Below, one piece after another: positions 2,719-63,199 of a stretch of DNA of 64,000 nt. The position numbers were made by a program, and so were the translations under genes. Each line of letters opens with the position of its first letter. Position 1 is the stretch's first letter. The DNA is from a virus. Taxonomy: Duplodnaviria > Heunggongvirae > Uroviricota > Caudoviricetes. Below the pieces are notes generated by a model, which was not told where the DNA came from, did not search any database, and saw only the letters and a list, made by a program, of their open reading frames with translations. The DNA lies in IMG/VR virus record IMGVR_UViG_2675903313_000009. One strand, written 5' to 3'.

Positions 2719-3891
2719 ATGGATTTGTTCTCAACCAAAATAGCAAAAAACAAGCTGCACGAATCTTTTAAACAGATTTATCAAGATAATACATATGCTC
2801 CAGTAAGAGAAGTGATACAGTCGTGGGGGCGTGGGTTACTGGAGCGTAGCGGTGAGCAGACTAAATTCGTTAAAGAGTTTCAGACAACCTTCAATTCCGC
2901 CTTATGGGAATTGTATCTGAACGAAATGTTTATTCGTCTCGATTATTCTGTCGACTACACAAAAGACAGTCCCGATTTCTGTGTTACTACACCGTCAGGC
3001 TACCAGTTTAACGTCGAAGCTGTGATATCAGATCGGCCACATAATCCACCTGCAGGTGTTCTTTTTAGCGAATCAAAATTCAAACATCAATCAACGCTAA
3101 AATTAATCGGAAAAATCAAAGACAAACATGATCTTTTTACAGGAGTTAATGGCAAAAAATTCCCGTACTCTACGATGTCTCATGTAGTTAATAAGCCGTT
3201 TGTTCTGGCGCTTGCACCCTTTGACTCCGATTTATCATTGTCTCAAAATAACACAATCATCAATCGAGTGTTGTTTGGCATTGAGGAACCTACCACCAGA
3301 AATTTGGTGACTGGCAGCCAAACTAAAGTTACCTCAATCAAAAAGAATGAAGACGTTGAAATTCCATTAGGTATATTTACTAACGACTCATATAAAGAAA
3401 TAAGTGCGGTTATTTTCTCCACCACCGGCACTTTTGGAAAAGCCGTGGTTCAAAGCGGTATCGGTAGATATGTAAGGTCAACACGATATCGAGCCATTGA
3501 TGTGAATGATTTCATCGCCAATGAAGGGATGAAAAACGAGGGAAAGCACACACAAAGGATAGGACCTGATCATTTCATCACTACATATCGGCATTTTTTA
3601 AATAACGAAGTCACTGGTGCGGATATTGTAGTTTGTCATTCCACTGCTCATGAAGAGACGCACTTTGACGGCCTTCATATTTACTACAATCCTTTTGCGA
3701 CAGTGCCACTGGACAGAAATATTTTCTTCCCCCCAGAGATAACTCATAATTTTTACGATATGGAAAAAGAACAGTCTGTTCAGAATCATCCTGATGGAGC
3801 GCTGGTATCTAGACAGGTTTTTGAACCAACTAGAGCACATTTTAGGTATATCATGAAACATTGGTTTCCAGGCTTTCTAAAAGATGTTTAA
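2719..3891 (+). CDS. hypothetical accessory protein (ORF open from 2695)
   Basis: ATG at 2719 preceded by GAGG 7 nt upstream; AT-rich coding sequence; no recognisable catalytic motif. Confidence 0.5.
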   Translation: MDLFSTKIAKNKLHESFKQIYQDNTYAPVREVIQSWGRGLLERSGEQTKFVKEFQTTFNSALWELYLNEMFIRLDYSVDYTKDSPDFCVTTPSGYQFNVEAVISDRPHNPPAGVLFSESKFKHQSTLKLIGKIKDKHDLFTGVNGKKFPYSTMSHVVNKPFVLALAPFDSDLSLSQNNTIINRVLFGIEEPTTRNLVTGSQTKVTSIKKNEDVEIPLGIFTNDSYKEISAVIFSTTGTFGKAVVQSGIGRYVRSTRYRAIDVNDFIANEGMKNEGKHTQRIGPDHFITTYRHFLNNEVTGADIVVCHSTAHEETHFDGLHIYYNPFATVPLDRNIFFPPEITHNFYDMEKEQSVQNHPDGALVSRQVFEPTRAHFRYIMKHWFPGFLKDV

Positions 3892-4872: not shown

Positions 4873-6213
4873 ATGACCGAACTTTGCCATACAGGACGCG
4901 GGCTGTCCGAAGAGTTTGATGAAGATTTCCAGAACAGACTGACGGCATATTTTTGTCGTGATCACGAGTTTCTTACTCGTGCGGGAGATCTGGTTGTGCC
5001 TAGCCAATTTGCCAATGCGGCCAATGCCATATTGGTTAATATGGTTTCGGGCTATTACCGTATGTACAAGAGCGCGCCTTCTTCATCTGCGATTCTGGAT
5101 ATGCTTAAGCGCGCGAAACGCGATAAGACCATCCGTGAGGAACTCTTCCCGGATGTTGTTGCTGCGTTTAAGCGCATCCTTGCAGAAAAATTGTCTGATA
5201 CCACGTACATGGTTGACCAGGTATCCACATTCGCAAAAAGTGTAGCGTTTGATGATGCTCTGATTAAAGCTGCTGAACTGAAAGAGAAGGGCGACTTTCA
5301 GGGGGCGATGGCAATCATGGCCAAGGTTCAGCAGATAGGCTCGAACGAAGCGACCGGAATCTATGACTACTACACCTCCGCAAGTGAGCGATTGAAAGCG
5401 CGTGAATATGAGGCTTCAGAGGAGTATGTGCCAAACAGCATTACAACTGGACTCCCTCTGCTCGATAGGTTGCTGTACCAAAAAGGCTGGGCGAAGCGTG
5501 AAATGGTGCTCTTCATGGGGTTCGCTAAATCCGGCAAATCGACCGCAATGGGTGAGTTTTCCATAAACGCAACGCTTGCTGGCTACAATGTTCTGTATCT
5601 CTCGCTGGAGGTTCACACCACCATTTTATCCGACCGTTTTGATGCAAGATTGTCGGAGACAGAAATGTCCAAGCTGGTGGAACGGCGCGATGAGGTTCAT
5701 CGTAAGTTGGCAGAGTTGGGAGCCACGAAGGGGATTGGTAGTTTGTGGGTGGTTGAGCGTCCGTCAGGAAGTATGTCACCGGCAGATCTGGACCGTATGC
5801 TTAACAGCATGAAAGCCAACGGCATGGTGCCTGACATGGTTGTTGTCGACTACGCAGATTTGATGCGTGCCAGTTATGACCTTCGTGATGATCGCGCCAA
5901 CATTCGTAGTATCTACACCGATTTACGTGCTCTTTATGACAAGCATAACGTTGCTGGGATTACGGCATCGCAGACAAACCGTGAAGGTGGCGCGTCAGAA
6001 GTTGCCACAATGATGCACGCTGCCGACAACATCGAAAAAGTACGTATTGCTGACCTGGTAATAACGATCAACAAAACCGAAGAAGAAGAAGCGAAAGGAG
6101 AGGCTCGTCTCTACTTTGCTGGTTCACGTAACCAGCAGGGAGGGATCAGCATTCGCGTTAAACAAAACCTCGAACAAATGCGCTTCATTGAGCGAATCTT
6201 AGACGTTACCTAA
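4873..6213 (+). CDS. replicative DNA helicase (DnaB/T7 gp4-like RecA-fold)
   Basis: Walker A GFAKSGKST, Walker B MVVVDYADLM, arginine-finger-like TASQTNREG; conserved start context aaggaaagcacATG. Confidence 0.8.
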   Translation: MTELCHTGRGLSEEFDEDFQNRLTAYFCRDHEFLTRAGDLVVPSQFANAANAILVNMVSGYYRMYKSAPSSSAILDMLKRAKRDKTIREELFPDVVAAFKRILAEKLSDTTYMVDQVSTFAKSVAFDDALIKAAELKEKGDFQGAMAIMAKVQQIGSNEATGIYDYYTSASERLKAREYEASEEYVPNSITTGLPLLDRLLYQKGWAKREMVLFMGFAKSGKSTAMGEFSINATLAGYNVLYLSLEVHTTILSDRFDARLSETEMSKLVERRDEVHRKLAELGATKGIGSLWVVERPSGSMSPADLDRMLNSMKANGMVPDMVVVDYADLMRASYDLRDDRANIRSIYTDLRALYDKHNVAGITASQTNREGGASEVATMMHAADNIEKVRIADLVITINKTEEEEAKGEARLYFAGSRNQQGGISIRVKQNLEQMRFIERILDVT

Positions 6214-16119: not shown

Positions 16120-16217
16120 ACTGAAAATGAGTTACTTTTACTCTTGATCCTATAAGAATCTATGCCTAATATACTGTTTACTTATACAGTGAATCGGCGT
16201 AACTCGGTGATTGTCAT

Positions 16218-20467: not shown

Positions 20468-21703
20468 ATGACGACTACTGCACTGCAAAATGAAAAAAAT
20501 CCTTCTGATTACCTTGTTTGCAAGTGGTGCGGCAAATCATTTCACTATTTTAAGTCCCATGTAGCCAATGGTAATTGCGAGGGCATTCCTGAGTCAGTAA
20601 AAGATGCCGATCCTGACACCGTACTGAAAATGTACACAACGCAGTTTCCAGATGAACCAACGCTATCGAAAAAGGCACTTGATGCAATTCAAGCTAAACG
20701 TGCCGAGCAAAAAAGCGAAATGGCCAAATCTTCTGGCTTGACCAGTAGCCCTGGCTACACAGGCACAGTTGAGTACAAGACAGATCTGGTCGCAGCTCAC
20801 GAACTGCTAAACGTAACGGTGGAAGAACTCGGAACAAAACGTGGGACGCCGCTCATGGTTAGCGTCAACGTCAATACGCCGTATCCAGAGTTCGTTCCCG
20901 AAGTGAAGAAAGGCTACGTATATGGCGACTTCGAACTGATCAAAGATATTTTCATGATGCTTGAACTTGGCATACCTGGCTATTTGTGGGGTCATGCAGG
21001 AACAGGCAAATCGTCATTGCCTACACAGCTATGTGCTTTGCTCAATCGTCCGTTGATCCGTGCCCAACATACAGCATCAATGGAAGAGGCACATGTTACG
21101 GGGCAAATTCTGGCGCGTGATGGCTCTACGTATTTCGAACCTGGCTTGCTTGCGCTCGCAATGAAGCATGGCTGGGTTTACCTCGCGGATGAATACGACT
21201 TTGCGTTTCCACAAATTCTTGGCGTGTATCAGCCAGTGCTGGAAGGTGAAGCGTTGGTCATCAAAGAGGCAACTCCAGAATGGCGTCGCATTACTCCGCA
21301 TGAACGGTTTGCTTTCATTGGCACTGGCAACACGAACGGATCTGGTGATGAAACCGGCTTGTACCAGGGTACAAACATCCAGAACGCCGCGAACTTTTCG
21401 CGTTTTGGCATCGTTTCGAATGTGAAATACATGAGCAAAGACGCAGAGATCAACATGTTGACAAATGCAGGCATCGTGGATGAATACGCTGAAAAGATGG
21501 TTAAGTTTGCCGGTATCGTTCGCGATGGATACGAAGAACACCTCATTAGTCAGCCAATTGGCCCTCGTGAACTTTTGTTGTCGGCCAAGATTGGAATGAT
21601 GCGAGGCGACTTTGTGACAGGTATTGAGCGTTCTTTCATTAACAAACTCCCTTCAGCTTCTGCACAAGCGGCTCGTGAAGTTGTTCAAAAAATATTTGGT
21701 TAA
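20468..21703 (+). CDS. AAA+ ATPase (CobS/MoxR-like)
   Basis: Walker A GHAGTGKSS, Walker B VYLADEYDFA; N-terminal CxxC...C cysteine cluster. Confidence 0.65.
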   Translation: MTTTALQNEKNPSDYLVCKWCGKSFHYFKSHVANGNCEGIPESVKDADPDTVLKMYTTQFPDEPTLSKKALDAIQAKRAEQKSEMAKSSGLTSSPGYTGTVEYKTDLVAAHELLNVTVEELGTKRGTPLMVSVNVNTPYPEFVPEVKKGYVYGDFELIKDIFMMLELGIPGYLWGHAGTGKSSLPTQLCALLNRPLIRAQHTASMEEAHVTGQILARDGSTYFEPGLLALAMKHGWVYLADEYDFAFPQILGVYQPVLEGEALVIKEATPEWRRITPHERFAFIGTGNTNGSGDETGLYQGTNIQNAANFSRFGIVSNVKYMSKDAEINMLTNAGIVDEYAEKMVKFAGIVRDGYEEHLISQPIGPRELLLSAKIGMMRGDFVTGIERSFINKLPSASAQAAREVVQKIFG

Positions 21704-59867: not shown

Positions 59868-60247
59868 TGCATAAATCAGTAGCCGGTGAGTTTCAGAAGG
59901 AAGTCGATAATACCACTGATCTATTGGACGATATTTTAAGCATTCTCGCGCTGCTTGAGGCTGGCGATTGGTCAGAACATTGCACTAAAACAGAGCTAGG
60001 CGGTCGGCTTGAAAGAGAGATTACACGACTGATTAGCGATGCCCAAAATGATTTGTCACCTGAGCATCTCCCCTGCGATGTAGTTCTTGTGCCAGGGATG
60101 AGGATACACGAAGGCGTCAGAACGAAAACATTATTAACCGCATTACAGAGAAGAGCCGAACTAAGCTCGCGGATAAAGTTGATGCCATCCAAAATATTTG
60201 ATGTCGTCAAATTTACGCCATCGCAACATACTGAGAGAGATAAATGA
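59864..60247 (+). CDS. hypothetical protein
   Basis: 127 aa; overlapping start/stop. Confidence 0.45.
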   Translation: MMHKSVAGEFQKEVDNTTDLLDDILSILALLEAGDWSEHCTKTELGGRLEREITRLISDAQNDLSPEHLPCDVVLVPGMRIHEGVRTKTLLTALQRRAELSSRIKLMPSKIFDVVKFTPSQHTERDK

Positions 60248-60870
60248 GCACGGTAGCGAAAGATCTCACAGAAGATATTCTCAATGAAATTATTGCTGGT
60301 GCAAATACCTCGCTTGAGCAACTTCTTGCGTTAGCACTGAGAGCCGAACGTCGAGACAGAAATCGTTTTTATGAGCGATTACCAGGGAAGCGACCAGATA
60401 GATCGGATGAAGAAGGTTGCGATATAGACTACATGGAGCCTTCAGAGATTTATCAACTTGGTAAAGATGACGGCTGGAACGCTTATCACGATGCTGTGAT
60501 GAAGTTGGATGAAAAAGTTAAACCTCTTTCTCGACCGGTAGATCACGGTTTCCGCGATAACTGCGAATGCTCTAGTTGCCAGACCACGGCCCGTATTTGT
60601 TCCGAATTGACAGATAAGTCCAGCCTAATCTACGAAGTTAATGTAGGCGGTAATACATGGGTCGAATGCACAAGAGCTGCATACGTAAGAGCAAAAGACA
60701 AGGGTGAATTAACCAGAGTTGTTACCCATCACCCAAATAATGAGCTTAAAGATCACCAGATTAGAGAACTGGTGAACGAGTTGCGGGATATTGCGGTTCA
60801 GTACCACGGAGCGCAGCAATTGCGGGAGAAAATTGCCAGAGCAGTGAACAACTCAGTCCGTAAAAAATAA
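60244..60870 (+). CDS. hypothetical protein (last phage-type ORF before the junction region)
   Basis: 208 aa; overlapping start with the previous ORF; followed by a hairpin lacking a T-run. Confidence 0.45.
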   Translation: MSTVAKDLTEDILNEIIAGANTSLEQLLALALRAERRDRNRFYERLPGKRPDRSDEEGCDIDYMEPSEIYQLGKDDGWNAYHDAVMKLDEKVKPLSRPVDHGFRDNCECSSCQTTARICSELTDKSSLIYEVNVGGNTWVECTRAAYVRAKDKGELTRVVTHHPNNELKDHQIRELVNELRDIAVQYHGAQQLREKIARAVNNSVRKK

Positions 60871-60925
60871 GCAATAGTACGATAAAGAGGCCCCATGCTC
60901 TTGATGGGGCCTGTAGCAACTAGCG

Positions 60926-61009
60926 TTATGGACGCTGGTTTACGTACTCAATGATCGCTTTGATAATCGCGAACATCGGCGGCACGATTTTGAACAGTAA
61001 GTTAACCAT
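60926..61009 (-). CDS. candidate 27-aa hydrophobic peptide (type I toxin-like; speculative)
   Basis: minus-strand ATG with GAGG 6 nt upstream; MVNLLFKIVPPMFAIIKAIIEYVNQRP; a degenerate copy of its 5' segment recurs near 61100. Confidence 0.2.
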   Translation of the reverse strand: MVNLLFKIVPPMFAIIKAIIEYVNQRP

Positions 61010-61314
61010 AACAGGCCTCACTTAGTTTTATCGCGCCTAGCTGCAAATACCTTTGGGCTTGCCTTTGCAGTTGCAATATCTGTAGTCGCCAGATACTTAC
61101 GGCACGATTTCGAGTTAAGGTAAGGTTTTAGAGTCACCAAAAACCTGGACTTAAATCTTCTTTGAGAACAACGATGTTTAGTAAATGGTCATTATTACCT
61201 AGTATGACCACTCAACGTTTCTTGATGAATCCAGTACATTCGGTTAATCTTAATTCAGTCGCCAGATACTTATGGCTCAGGAACAGAGCCGCAAACTCTG
61301 TTTCCTTTTAAAAA

Positions 61315-61340
61315 GCCCAGCCTAGTCAACTGGGCTTTTT
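61315..61340. terminator. bidirectional rho-independent terminator
   Basis: stem gcccag/ctgggc flanked by A5 and T5. Confidence 0.7.
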
Positions 61341-61637
61341 AATGTCTATTTTTAACCCAACATACCCTCAATACTGCAACATCAGTGTCTTGCGAATTAA
61401 GATAGTGTGAATAGATTTTTCATGCAAGTGCATAAGCCTGTGGATAACTCAGGAAGGAAAAAGTGACTTCTGCGCACTTTAGACCGGACAAGGCGTTCGA
61501 AAAAGTCAATGGGAAGAAAAAATTTGTTAAAAATAACGTTTGTTTGAATTGTATATATTTATGCCTTTCAATAGTTAGCATCTTATTAACATCTTTTTTA
61601 AGAGATAGAGTTCAAAAATATATAGCTTCAATATACA

Positions 61638-61653
61638 CTGTATGTGTATACAG
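61638..61653 (+). promoter_or_regulatory. LexA (SOS) box
   Basis: CTGTATGTGTATACAG, matching the CTGT-N8-ACAG consensus, about 20 bp upstream of the umuD'-like start. Confidence 0.8.
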
Positions 61654-61671
61654 TATTAAGAGGCGAGTATT

Positions 61672-62061
61672 ATGGGCTTCCCTTCTCCTGCGGCGGATTA
61701 TGCTGAGAGCCGTATTTCTCTTGATCAGCAGATAATTAGACATCCTTCAGCGACCTACTTCATGAGGGCAGCTGATAGTCATCATCGTGAGGGAATATTA
61801 CAGGGTGCATTGCTGGTGGTCGATTCCTCACTTACCCCGGTTGATGGTTCTCTGCTTGTATGCGCTCTGGATGGGGAATATCGCGTAAAAAGATACCGGA
61901 AGTATCCACGTCAGCATCTGGAGGATTTAAGAACCGGTAAGAAGGAAGCATTGCCAAAGGATGACGATGGATGCACGGGCAGCAATGCCGTGTTTGGTGT
62001 GATCACTCACATTATCAACGACGCAAGAAGTGGCGAGTTTGATGATTGTCCCGTGATGTAG
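61672..62061 (+). CDS. UmuD'-like (pre-truncated UmuD/S24 peptidase family) protein
   Basis: starts GFPSPAADY (the UmuD' N-terminus), then HPSATYF, DS(H), DGEYRVK and VFGVITHI parallel UmuD; no N-terminal cleavage region. Confidence 0.75.
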   Translation: MGFPSPAADYAESRISLDQQIIRHPSATYFMRAADSHHREGILQGALLVVDSSLTPVDGSLLVCALDGEYRVKRYRKYPRQHLEDLRTGKKEALPKDDDGCTGSNAVFGVITHIINDARSGEFDDCPVM

Positions 62062-62098: not shown

Positions 62099-63199
62099 TC
62101 ACACTGCGCGGAATGCGATTTCGCCAGGTATTACTTCACCTTGCCAATACATTTGGGCAGCAACGCGATCTGCGAGGTCACGATAAATAGCCGTAAATTC
62201 GCTATCTGGACGACTAATAACGGTTGGTGTTCCGTTATCCAGATCTTCACGAAGTGAGATATGAAGTGGCATTTGGCCTAACAACTGCGTGTTGTATTTC
62301 TCGGCCAGTTTCTCTGCGCCACCGGTGCCGAAAATTGGCTCGTGATGACCGCAGTTACTGCAAATATGCACACTCATGTTTTCGACGATACCCAGTACCG
62401 GCACTTCGACTTTTTCGAACATCACAATGCCTTTCTTCGCATCGATCAGCGCGATGTCTTGCGGCGTAGTTACCACAACAGCACCAGTTACAGGAATGTT
62501 CTGCGCCAGCGTCAACTGAATATCACCAGTGCCCGGCGGCATATCGAGAACAAGATAGTCCAGATCAGGCCATAGAGTTTCCTGCAACATCTGCATCAGC
62601 GCCTTGCTGGCCATCGGTCCACGCCACACCATTGCATTGTCGTCGGTGACCAGATAACCAATAGAGTTGGTTGCCAGGCCATGAGACATGATAGGTGCCA
62701 TGTGAGTACCGTCAGGTGAGGTTGGACGTTGGTTTTCCGCGCCCAGCATGGTTGGAATTGATGGACCATAGATATCGGCATCCAAAATACCAACTTTCGC
62801 ACCTTCAGCAGCCAACGCCAGTGCCAGGTTTACCGCCGTGGAGGATTTACCCACGCCGCCCTTGCCTGAGCTGACGGCGATAATGTTCTTAACGCCATTA
62901 ATGCCTGGTTGGTTTTTGACACGCTTAAGCGTGGCAATGTTGTACGACAGCTTCCAGTCAATAGCCTTTGCGCCAGTGATACGGAGCAGATCACCACTAC
63001 ATTGCTCTTTCAGGTCTTCAAAAGGCTTATTCCACACGAAAGGCATGATTAGTTCGACATGCAGTGTGTCATCCATCAACGCAACATGGTGTAACGCTTT
63101 AAGCGTAGTCAGGTTGTGTTTCAGGGTTGGGTGCTGAAAATTAGCCAGCGTACCGGCTACCATTGCTCTCAGGGCATCCGGCGATTTGGACTCGCTCAT
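62099..63199 (-). CDS. apbC: Fe-S cluster carrier ATPase ApbC/Mrp
   Basis: 366 aa; deviant Walker A SSGKGGVGKSS and CSNCGHHEP motif; near-identical to enterobacterial Mrp as recalled. Confidence 0.95.
   Translation of the reverse strand: MSESKSPDALRAMVAGTLANFQHPTLKHNLTTLKALHHVALMDDTLHVELIMPFVWNKPFEDLKEQCSGDLLRITGAKAIDWKLSYNIATLKRVKNQPGINGVKNIIAVSSGKGGVGKSSTAVNLALALAAEGAKVGILDADIYGPSIPTMLGAENQRPTSPDGTHMAPIMSHGLATNSIGYLVTDDNAMVWRGPMASKALMQMLQETLWPDLDYLVLDMPPGTGDIQLTLAQNIPVTGAVVVTTPQDIALIDAKKGIVMFEKVEVPVLGIVENMSVHICSNCGHHEPIFGTGGAEKLAEKYNTQLLGQMPLHISLREDLDNGTPTVISRPDSEFTAIYRDLADRVAAQMYWQGEVIPGEIAFRAV

Follow-up and report, generated by a model that had tools for sequence, protein, structure and literature searches.

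A probable type I toxin-antitoxin module in an unannotated gap of an SSU5/pLF82-type phage-plasmid

The DNA described here is a stretch of 64,000 nt (the window) from the virus record IMGVR_UViG_2675903313_000009, which by its identity to sequenced replicons is part of an SSU5/pLF82-type phage-plasmid. Inspected RefSeq and GenBank copies have no annotated gene at 60871-61671, in keeping with the original prediction, which saw about 450 bp without convincing genes at this place. The gap nevertheless holds a minus-strand open reading frame (ORF) for a 27-residue peptide with a coding signature and, divergent from it, a small RNA (sRNA) gene with a conserved promoter, fold and terminator. Together they form a candidate type I toxin-antitoxin (TA) module, in which the 5' end of the sRNA would pair with the leader of the toxin mRNA.

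The peptide gene

The gene for the peptide consists of the following elements.

61009-60926, minus strand: candidate toxin ORF, 27 amino acids plus stop (MVNLLFKIVPPMFAIIKAIIEYVNQRP), intact in 93 of 94 plasmid copies
61019-61016, minus strand: Shine-Dalgarno (SD) sequence GAGG, 6 nt before the ATG and partly buried in a local hairpin (AGUGAGGCC with GGU..CUUAC)
60888-60912, just past the ORF stop: GC-rich hairpin of 9 pairs

These agree with the original prediction, which had pointed to a minus-strand ORF with a GAGG ribosome-binding site (RBS), ending near a terminator. The hairpin was returned by a terminator scan, is the 3' hairpin in every fold of the mRNA, and has an equivalent at the same place in the relatives. 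We infer that it is the 3' terminator of the toxin mRNA; it is also placed to end the upstream plus-strand ORF (60244-60870). The conserved start codon is the ATG at 61009. An in-frame GTG upstream of it (61021) belongs to the SD region, and several relatives lack it. The mean probability of being unpaired is about 0.4 for the ribosome-binding region.

Among 13 distinct alleles, the ratio of non-synonymous to synonymous polymorphism (pN/pS) is 0.245 in the frame of the peptide versus 1.06 and 4.46 out of frame, and by this measure the frame is under purifying selection and the ORF is coding. Between the window and pECOH89, for example, the ORF has six synonymous and two non-synonymous changes, plus a change from ATG to GTG at the start. 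The single plasmid copy that is not full-length (L012, CP088831.1) has five scattered single-base indels over 490 bp, one of which shifts the frame of the ORF; such a pattern resembles homopolymer errors of long-read sequencing more than decay. In the structure model, the peptide forms a single helix (predicted local distance difference test score, pLDDT, 90.6). Five peptide variants returned no NCBIfam family at E≤10, and a scan of 1.8 billion proteins recovered only the peptide itself and a 56-aa fusion protein (P0002, see below). Database copies of the peptide are labelled "hypothetical protein", and the peptide strings are absent from 8 million full texts, a search that lies outside supplementary candidate tables (e.g., Fozo 2010, T1TAdb).

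The sRNA gene

The sRNA gene lies on the opposite strand, upstream of the peptide gene.

61222-61250, plus strand: sRNA promoter, TTGATG (61222-61227), 17 nt, TAATCT (61245-61250), then 6 nt to A61257
61257-61341, plus strand: candidate sRNA of about 85 nt, with a 5' seed (nt 1-20), stem-loop 1 (GGAACAGAG/CUCUGUUUCC) and a terminator
61308-61342, both strands: bidirectional intrinsic terminator, a perfect 13-bp palindrome with T-runs on each strand, providing the 3' end of the sRNA

The promoter geometry (TTGAAG-17-TAAGCT-6-AGTCGCC) is found in all 20 of the loci compared. The sRNA has a fold z-score of -4.99, and six pairs of its consensus structure show compensatory changes, on both sides of the pair. 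A covariance model built from the sRNA family scores 99.8 bits at 61257-61341. The terminator also insulates the module from the side of humD, the next gene.

Two observations concern the region beyond this terminator. The minus strand at 61305-61427 may encode another small transcript, which would converge on the sRNA and use the same bidirectional terminator: a promoter-like TTGCAT-17-TATCTT at about 61427-61399 is followed by about 90 nt leading to the 61308-61342 hairpin. With the sRNA model this stretch reaches 26.5 bits, chiefly due to the terminator, and the putative transcript has no complementary target of 10 nt or more elsewhere in the window. In several relatives (L016 at about 5760-5790, L003 at about 3310-3330, and the equivalents in L004 and L005) a palindrome, CCACTACATGTAGTGG or CTA(C/T)ATGT(A/G)G, lies just past the sRNA terminator; the E. 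coli copies lack it.

Pairing between the sRNA seed and the toxin leader

The two short direct repeats reported in the original prediction are both present and both beyond chance. The 16-nt repeat AGTCGCCAGATACTTA occurs exactly only at 61084 and 61257 within the 64 kb; at three or fewer mismatches there are four matches (0.35 expected), a number that no shuffle reached. It extends to 20 nt with 19 of 20 positions identical. The second repeat, CGGCACGATTTYGA, is found only at 60980 and 61100 in the window, with 0.03 occurrences expected. The first repeat had been read as part of a degenerate second copy of the locus. Its copies are instead the 5' seed of the sRNA (61257) and a complementary site in the toxin leader (61084):

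61084-61103, minus strand: predicted sRNA-binding site in the toxin leader (GCCGUAAGUAUCUGGCGACU), forming 20 bp with the sRNA, one of them G·U
61096-61076, minus strand: target hairpin (GUAUCU/AGAUAU, loop GGCGACUAC), which includes the 3' part of the binding site and shows compensatory changes

Nucleotides 1-20 of the sRNA can thus pair with positions 61103-61084 of the minus-strand transcript, a site that precedes the start codon by 75 nt. The cognate duplex has a predicted energy of -38.5 kcal/mol, versus -13.7±2.9 kcal/mol for shuffled seeds. A second sRNA copy at 61081-61158, suggested by a 19.1-bit match to the sRNA model, was rejected: the match is due to the seed repeat only, and the site is a target rather than a gene because a conserved promoter and a terminator are both missing. 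A near match to the seed at 20915-20930 on the minus strand (AGTCGCCATATACGTA, two mismatches) is probably due to chance.

The seed falls into at least five variants (UAAGUAUCUGG, AAUGUAUCUGG, ..AUCCGG, GUAAAACACUGG and GUUGUUAACCGG, plus the ends GGCAGC and GGCUAC), each of which is mirrored in the target. The sequences shared by seed and target are distributed as follows.

E. coli: GCC(G/A)UAAGUAUCUGGCGACU
Most other loci: GAAUGUAUCUGGCGACU
One Citrobacter locus: AUCCGG
Two Citrobacter loci: GGCAGC
One metagenome contig: GGCUAC
L017, L047 and L068: GUAAAACACUGG
Klebsiella: GUUGUUAACCGG

Divergent classes cross-pair poorly. Covariation was assessed in a concatenated alignment of seed and target from 13 distinct loci of several enterobacterial genera, in which 96.2% of the cells are paired and 11 of 24 pairs are changed on both sides. 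None of 500 shuffles reached any of the five pairing measures, and sliding the register between seed and target reduced pairing to about 30%. The one-sided changes inside the helix are all G·U and never A·C, which is predicted by RNA pairing and not by homogenisation of DNA repeats. The 3' arm of the target hairpin covaries as well (CACUG/CAGUG in L017; GUUAAC/GUUAAC in Klebsiella). By these comparisons, seed and target co-evolve.

The leader and promoter of the toxin mRNA

Besides the target hairpin, the leader contains several elements, all on the minus strand.

61122-61148: 5'-proximal hairpin (CCAGGUUUU...AAAACCUU), where cross-genus conservation starts
61100-61113: 5' copy of the second repeat (UCGAAAUCGUGCCG), whose twin at 60980-60993 forms codons 6-10 of the toxin ORF (F K I V P)
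61070-61041: invariant hairpin CUGCAAA...UUUGCAG, 7 bp, identical in 20 of 20 aligned loci
61030-61037: element GGCGCGAU, with two alternative partners, the copies of the second repeat

From 5' to 3', the hairpins are ordered as the 5' hairpin, the target hairpin, the invariant hairpin and the local hairpin that half-buries the SD. In the consensus fold, GGCGCG (61037-61032) pairs with CGUGCC (61106-61101), while in the minimum-energy fold of the window sequence GGCGCGAU pairs with AUCGUGCC inside the ORF (60988-60981). The two alternatives are about 2-3 kcal/mol apart, and neither the SD hairpin nor the predicted exposure of the RBS differs between them. This modelling suggests that the 13-14-nt repeat supplies two mutually exclusive partners for GGCGCG(AU), so that the leader may be bistable. 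The alternatives recall those of dinQ, for which mutually exclusive leader pairings have been demonstrated experimentally (PMC5066626).

Conservation of the minus strand across genera starts at CCAGG (61148), and further upstream the E. coli copies are unrelated to those of other genera; we therefore place the 5' end of the toxin mRNA, tentatively, at about 61147. A weak -10-like AAGATT (61159-61154) aligns with GAAATT, TAAATT and TATATT of the relatives. An alternative promoter, TTCATC-17-CATACT, would put the start at about 61194. LexA control of the toxin promoter was considered and rejected, since no LexA operator (CTGT-N8-ACAG, at most one mismatch) is found at 61100-61300; the only one in this region is at 61638-61653, before humD.

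A short upstream frame, reminiscent of mok, is seen in many loci outside E. coli (L003, L004, L006, L016, L018 and others), where an ATG lies inside the sRNA target (GAAUGUAUCUGG). The frame has about 26 codons, ends on the toxin SD (AAGUGAGG or AAGUAAGG) and is equivalent to 61099-61018 on the minus strand of the window. This frame is present in loci of Kluyvera and Enterobacter and in part of the Citrobacter loci; one lineage has an in-frame fusion of it with the toxin, the 56-aa database protein P0002. As a conserved element it was rejected: every E. coli allele, that of the window included, has AAG in place of the ATG, other alleles have AAA or TTG, and at least five lineages have lost the frame through indels.

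Relatives and mobility

In E. coli, a blastn search located the locus in 115 of 5426 complete genomes, and 106 of its 116 placements are on plasmids. Plasmids of Citrobacter and Enterobacter carry diverged copies, 68-84% identical, which came up in a sensitive DNA search. Further relatives were recovered by a pattern scan using the invariant leader hairpin, of which three matches were spurious; it added loci in Kluyvera and Citrobacter genomes, one on a Klebsiella conjugative plasmid, and others on 34 viral and 24 metagenome contigs. Every locus, whether from Escherichia, Kluyvera, Citrobacter, Enterobacter, Klebsiella or the viral and metagenome contigs, has a homologous ORF of 26-28 codons at the same place.

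The encoded peptides are of two paralogous types, M(V/A)(N/D/S)LL.KIVPP...IEYVNQRP, to which that of the window belongs, and MQMLLLFLKLAHPV.VI..TLLG(Y/F)(W/F)K.R. Their ORFs occur singly or in tandem behind one leader. In the tandem loci (L004, 2803-2993; L005, 2798-2992; L011; L014; L030; L069) the first ORF encodes MQMLLLFLKLAHPV... and the second MV.LLLKI.PP..., and both have an SD of their own. Only the first of these types is found in L003 and L006 and only the second in the window, as if the cassette were modular.

The neighbours of the module also differ: humD in the window, phd and repA/repB in Citrobacter plasmids, and an IS3 transposase gene on the Klebsiella conjugative plasmid. The unit of about 450 bp therefore appears to move as a cassette.

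Genomic setting

Plasmid unnamed1 of E. coli O169:H41 F6326-C1 (NZ_CP024264.1) matches the window with 100% identity, and phage Cyrano (the pLF82 phage-plasmid), pECOH89 and plasmids of about 105-120 kb are 96-99.9% identical to the region. In phage Cyrano and the plasmid records the gene order is Ea-like genes, the unannotated gap, humD (S24 peptidase), apbC and metG, and the genes on both sides of the gap travel together on phage-plasmids of about 108 kb (Cyrano/pLF82, pECOH89). The first reading of the sequence took apbC and metG for host flank and the gap for the true boundary of the element. Both genes are annotated in phage Cyrano and in the plasmids; they are therefore cargo of the element, to which the gap is internal.

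Several features of the neighbourhood can be added. The phage-plasmid's own copies of apbC/mrp (Fe-S cluster carrier; 62099-63199, minus strand) and metG (methionyl-tRNA synthetase; from about 63357, plus strand) lie beyond humD, which encodes a UmuD'-like S24 peptidase (61672-62061). A perfect LexA-box core (CTGTATGTGTATACAG) at 61638-61653 is 19 nt upstream of the humD start, and 61420-61673 is about 79% identical to the region 5' of humD in phages P1, P7 and SJ46. The sole other exact CTGT-N8-ACAG match in the window, at 16174-16189 (CTGTTTACTTATACAG), may be a second LexA site of the phage-plasmid.

Interpretation and alternatives

We conclude with high confidence that the region is an sRNA-controlled small-protein module, and we think it probable that it is a true type I TA pair, built like dinQ/agrB. 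The original prediction had offered a type I TA-like locus as one of its readings, and that part is upheld by the coding signature of the ORF, the conserved promoter and terminator of the sRNA and the covariation of seed and target; the degenerate second copy that went with it is not.

In the proposed scheme, the module would be self-contained accessory cargo inside the phage-plasmid. A minus-strand transcript of about 260 nt (about 61147 to 60888) would consist of a structured leader of 138 nt and the 27-codon ORF for a presumed membrane toxin. The divergent sRNA of about 85 nt (61257 to 61341) would bind the leader through nt 1-20, in a duplex that lies about 45 nt from the mRNA 5' end. By analogy with tisB/istR-1, zorO/orzO and dinQ/agrB, the duplex may block a ribosome standby or entry region, trigger RNase III cleavage, or both, so that the peptide would stay silent for as long as the cell carries the element. 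Should the sRNA decay faster than its partner, cells that lose the phage-plasmid would start to make the toxin, with post-segregational killing as the result. Addiction to the phage-plasmid is the obvious guess for the biological role.

Some points weigh against this reading. The support for it is entirely comparative. The grand average of hydropathy of the candidate toxin is 0.86, which is moderately hydrophobic compared with 1.6-1.8 for TisB and DinQ; it carries two prolines in the middle of the helix, and searches of Pfam, NCBIfam and PHROGs gave it no toxin family. The promoter candidates of the toxin mRNA are all weak, and the location of the promoter is not secure. Blocking the target site in silico leaves the predicted accessibility of the RBS the same (0.42 versus 0.42, with similar results for nine relatives), so that the mechanism of repression is drawn by analogy only. 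A switch in which binding of the sRNA flips the leader to bury the RBS was rejected on these grounds, the constrained folding being unchanged and the alternative pairings leaving the SD hairpin intact. Finally, gene conversion rather than RNA pairing could in principle keep nearby repeats identical, but the direction of the G·U changes argues otherwise.

The peptide might also be a small membrane protein under sRNA control that is not a toxin, such as an accessory factor in superinfection exclusion, lysis timing or modulation of host membrane proteins. The evidence from pairing and coding is silent on toxicity, and this proposal suits a peptide that is less hydrophobic than the classic type I toxins and lacks a toxin family. 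We consider it unlikely, however, in view of several traits that are typical of type I TA systems (as a class: PMC8594479) and not of ordinary genes for small proteins: the long structured leader with a distal antisense site, the sequestered SD, the specificity classes of seed and target, the one peptide or two paralogous ones behind a single leader, and the carriage of the unit as a portable cassette on plasmids and phage-plasmids. Far less credible is non-functional junction DNA, consisting of repeats from serial insertion or attachment scars together with a chance ORF. Short direct repeats in a gene-poor stretch beside a terminator are what such a junction might leave, and duplicated attachment-core scars were indeed proposed in the original prediction. 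Yet the two copies are 173 bp apart within one module that recurs intact in unrelated plasmid contexts, and the 16-nt repeat, which the original prediction proposed to seek at the other end of the element, has no further exact copy within 64 kb. An attachment site or element boundary was accordingly rejected, the locus being internal to the phage-plasmid and its flanking genes part of the element. Moreover, different elements and genera have kept the whole 450 bp as a unit, in which the ORF bears a coding signature and the RNAs covary.

A closer contender, although still improbable, is that the locus belongs to the dinQ/dql-agrB family, as a remote and strongly diverged member, and does not form a family by itself. 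The Rfam model AgrB (RF02891) matches the sRNA at 61262-61343 with 27.6 bits (E 0.17). Reciprocally, our sRNA-family model matches K-12 agrB (19.6 bits, E about 0.007) and agrA (19.2 bits, E about 0.009) at their exact coordinates, while its best unrelated match in the window has 14 bits; the E-values of this home-made model are rough. The inner stem-loop AGAGCCNCNAACUC is common to both systems. By eye, AAGUCC(A/U)GG..GGUG can be seen where the conserved leader begins, which corresponds to the processed +44 end of dinQ mRNA (PMC5066626), and the target is about 44 nt from that leader end in both. These matches make a distant common origin of the present sRNA and agrA/agrB possible. On the other side, the AgrB score is under the gathering score of 40, and homology of the leader was rejected after blastn, nhmmer and a leader covariance model gave no similarity to K-12 dinQ, plasmid dinQ or two dqlB loci. 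The peptide gave no BLASTP alignment to DinQ, and its variants are unmatched in NCBIfam, which the Prokaryotic Genome Annotation Pipeline (PGAP) uses to name DinQ and DqlB on other plasmids. A tblastn search with DinQ on plasmids returned nothing, probably owing to low-complexity masking. The lack of a LexA box at the toxin promoter also sets the locus apart.

Returning to the type I TA pair, we lean towards regarding it as one member of an unrecognised cassette family on enterobacterial phage-plasmids and plasmids, in which one sRNA-controlled leader precedes either mini-toxin (MVNLLFKIVPP... or MQMLLLFLKLAHPV...), singly or in tandem, with at least five poorly cross-compatible classes of seed and target. 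The peptide and RNA are unnamed in the annotations, family models and literature found, and none of the papers connects SSU5-type phage-plasmids with a type I system; since supplementary lists lie outside this search, an earlier listing as an unnamed candidate is possible.

If this is correct, the diversification of seed and target would give each of a set of related phage-plasmids an addiction or exclusion module of its own. Phage-plasmids of the SSU5/pLF82 type are common in clinical E. coli and their stable maintenance is only partly understood, so an addiction-type module would contribute to the answer. The many alleles in which seed, target and target hairpin arm have changed together are an unusually clean natural experiment, with which seed specificity and cross-talk among homologous type I systems can be tested directly. 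The locus also shows that annotation pipelines still overlook whole families of 26-28-codon genes and their RNAs.

Comparison with known systems

The kind of system is well known, while the peptide and leader, as judged by family models and alignment, match no known family. As in type I TA systems generally, a coding ORF for a hydrophobic peptide stands beside an sRNA gene with extended complementarity to the toxin mRNA. In the non-overlapping 5' antisense class, the antisense gene is 5' of the mRNA, does not overlap it and lies within about 300 nt (T1TAdb, PMC8594479). Here the sRNA starts at 61257 and the mRNA, by our placement, at about 61147-61194, which groups the locus with tisB/istR-1, shoB/ohsC, zor/orz and dinQ/agrB. 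The blastn search of all complete E. coli genomes found 116 copies of the phage-plasmid type and no zor loci; at detectable identity, the locus is therefore not a paralogue of zor, tis, sho or dinQ.

The paralogous peptide of the relatives (..LKLAHPVAVIIMTLLGYWKDR) recalls the Ldr/Fst toxins in its A-P-hydrophobic stretch, aromatic pair and basic tail, a likeness seen by eye and useful only as a lead. There is no Pfam match even at E≤10 and no BLASTP alignment to an LdrD sequence, and the antisense arrangement differs. The locus resembles hok/sok in being a small membrane-toxin gene on a plasmid that would be curbed by an antisense RNA, with post-segregational killing as the expected role (PMC8594479). 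In hok/sok, the antisense gene has a cis overlap with the hok/mok leader and Sok works via the mok frame, whereas the sRNA gene and the mRNA are separate here; an upstream ORF at the target site is found only in some relatives here and is absent in the window.

Among the divergent systems, the antisense site of tisB/istR-1 is about 100 nt upstream of the RBS, where the RNA acts on a standby site and with RNase III cleavage. The present locus has no sequence similarity to it and no LexA box, and tisB is chromosomal. In zorO/orzO of E. coli O157:H7, as here, a divergent sRNA pairs with a long 5' untranslated region well upstream of the start codon. The peptide is unrelated to ZorO, and the Rfam model OrzO-P (RF02083) has no match in the window; the sRNA of the Enterobacter relative L004 scores 34.2 bits, below the gathering score of 60. 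Like AgrB, OrzO-P is a family of type I antitoxin sRNAs. The seed classes described above can be likened to the zor/orz paralogues, in which a short variable pairing region sets specificity (PMC5397157).

The closest parallel is dinQ/agrAB of K-12, where the toxin is likewise on one strand with the sRNA upstream and divergent, and the starts of ORF and sRNA are 275 nt apart, compared with 248 nt here. There are differences: a single sRNA copy is present instead of agrA plus agrB, relatives of the locus carry two tandem paralogous peptide ORFs, and the absence of a LexA box at the toxin promoter, unlike in dinQ and tisB, leaves no evidence of SOS control. The duplex is also shorter, at 20-23 nt. 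That of agrB pairs 31 of 34 nt. The systems share a single-helix peptide of 27 aa, an sRNA with a length of about 82-85 nt (as also in dqlA/dqlB), and an sRNA 5' end that is repeated in sense orientation in the toxin leader, which makes the leader transcript complementary to it. In both systems the target lies far upstream of a sequestered SD, in a leader with alternative pairings (PMC5066626). Through its sRNA, the cassette family might thus be distantly linked to dinQ/agrB.

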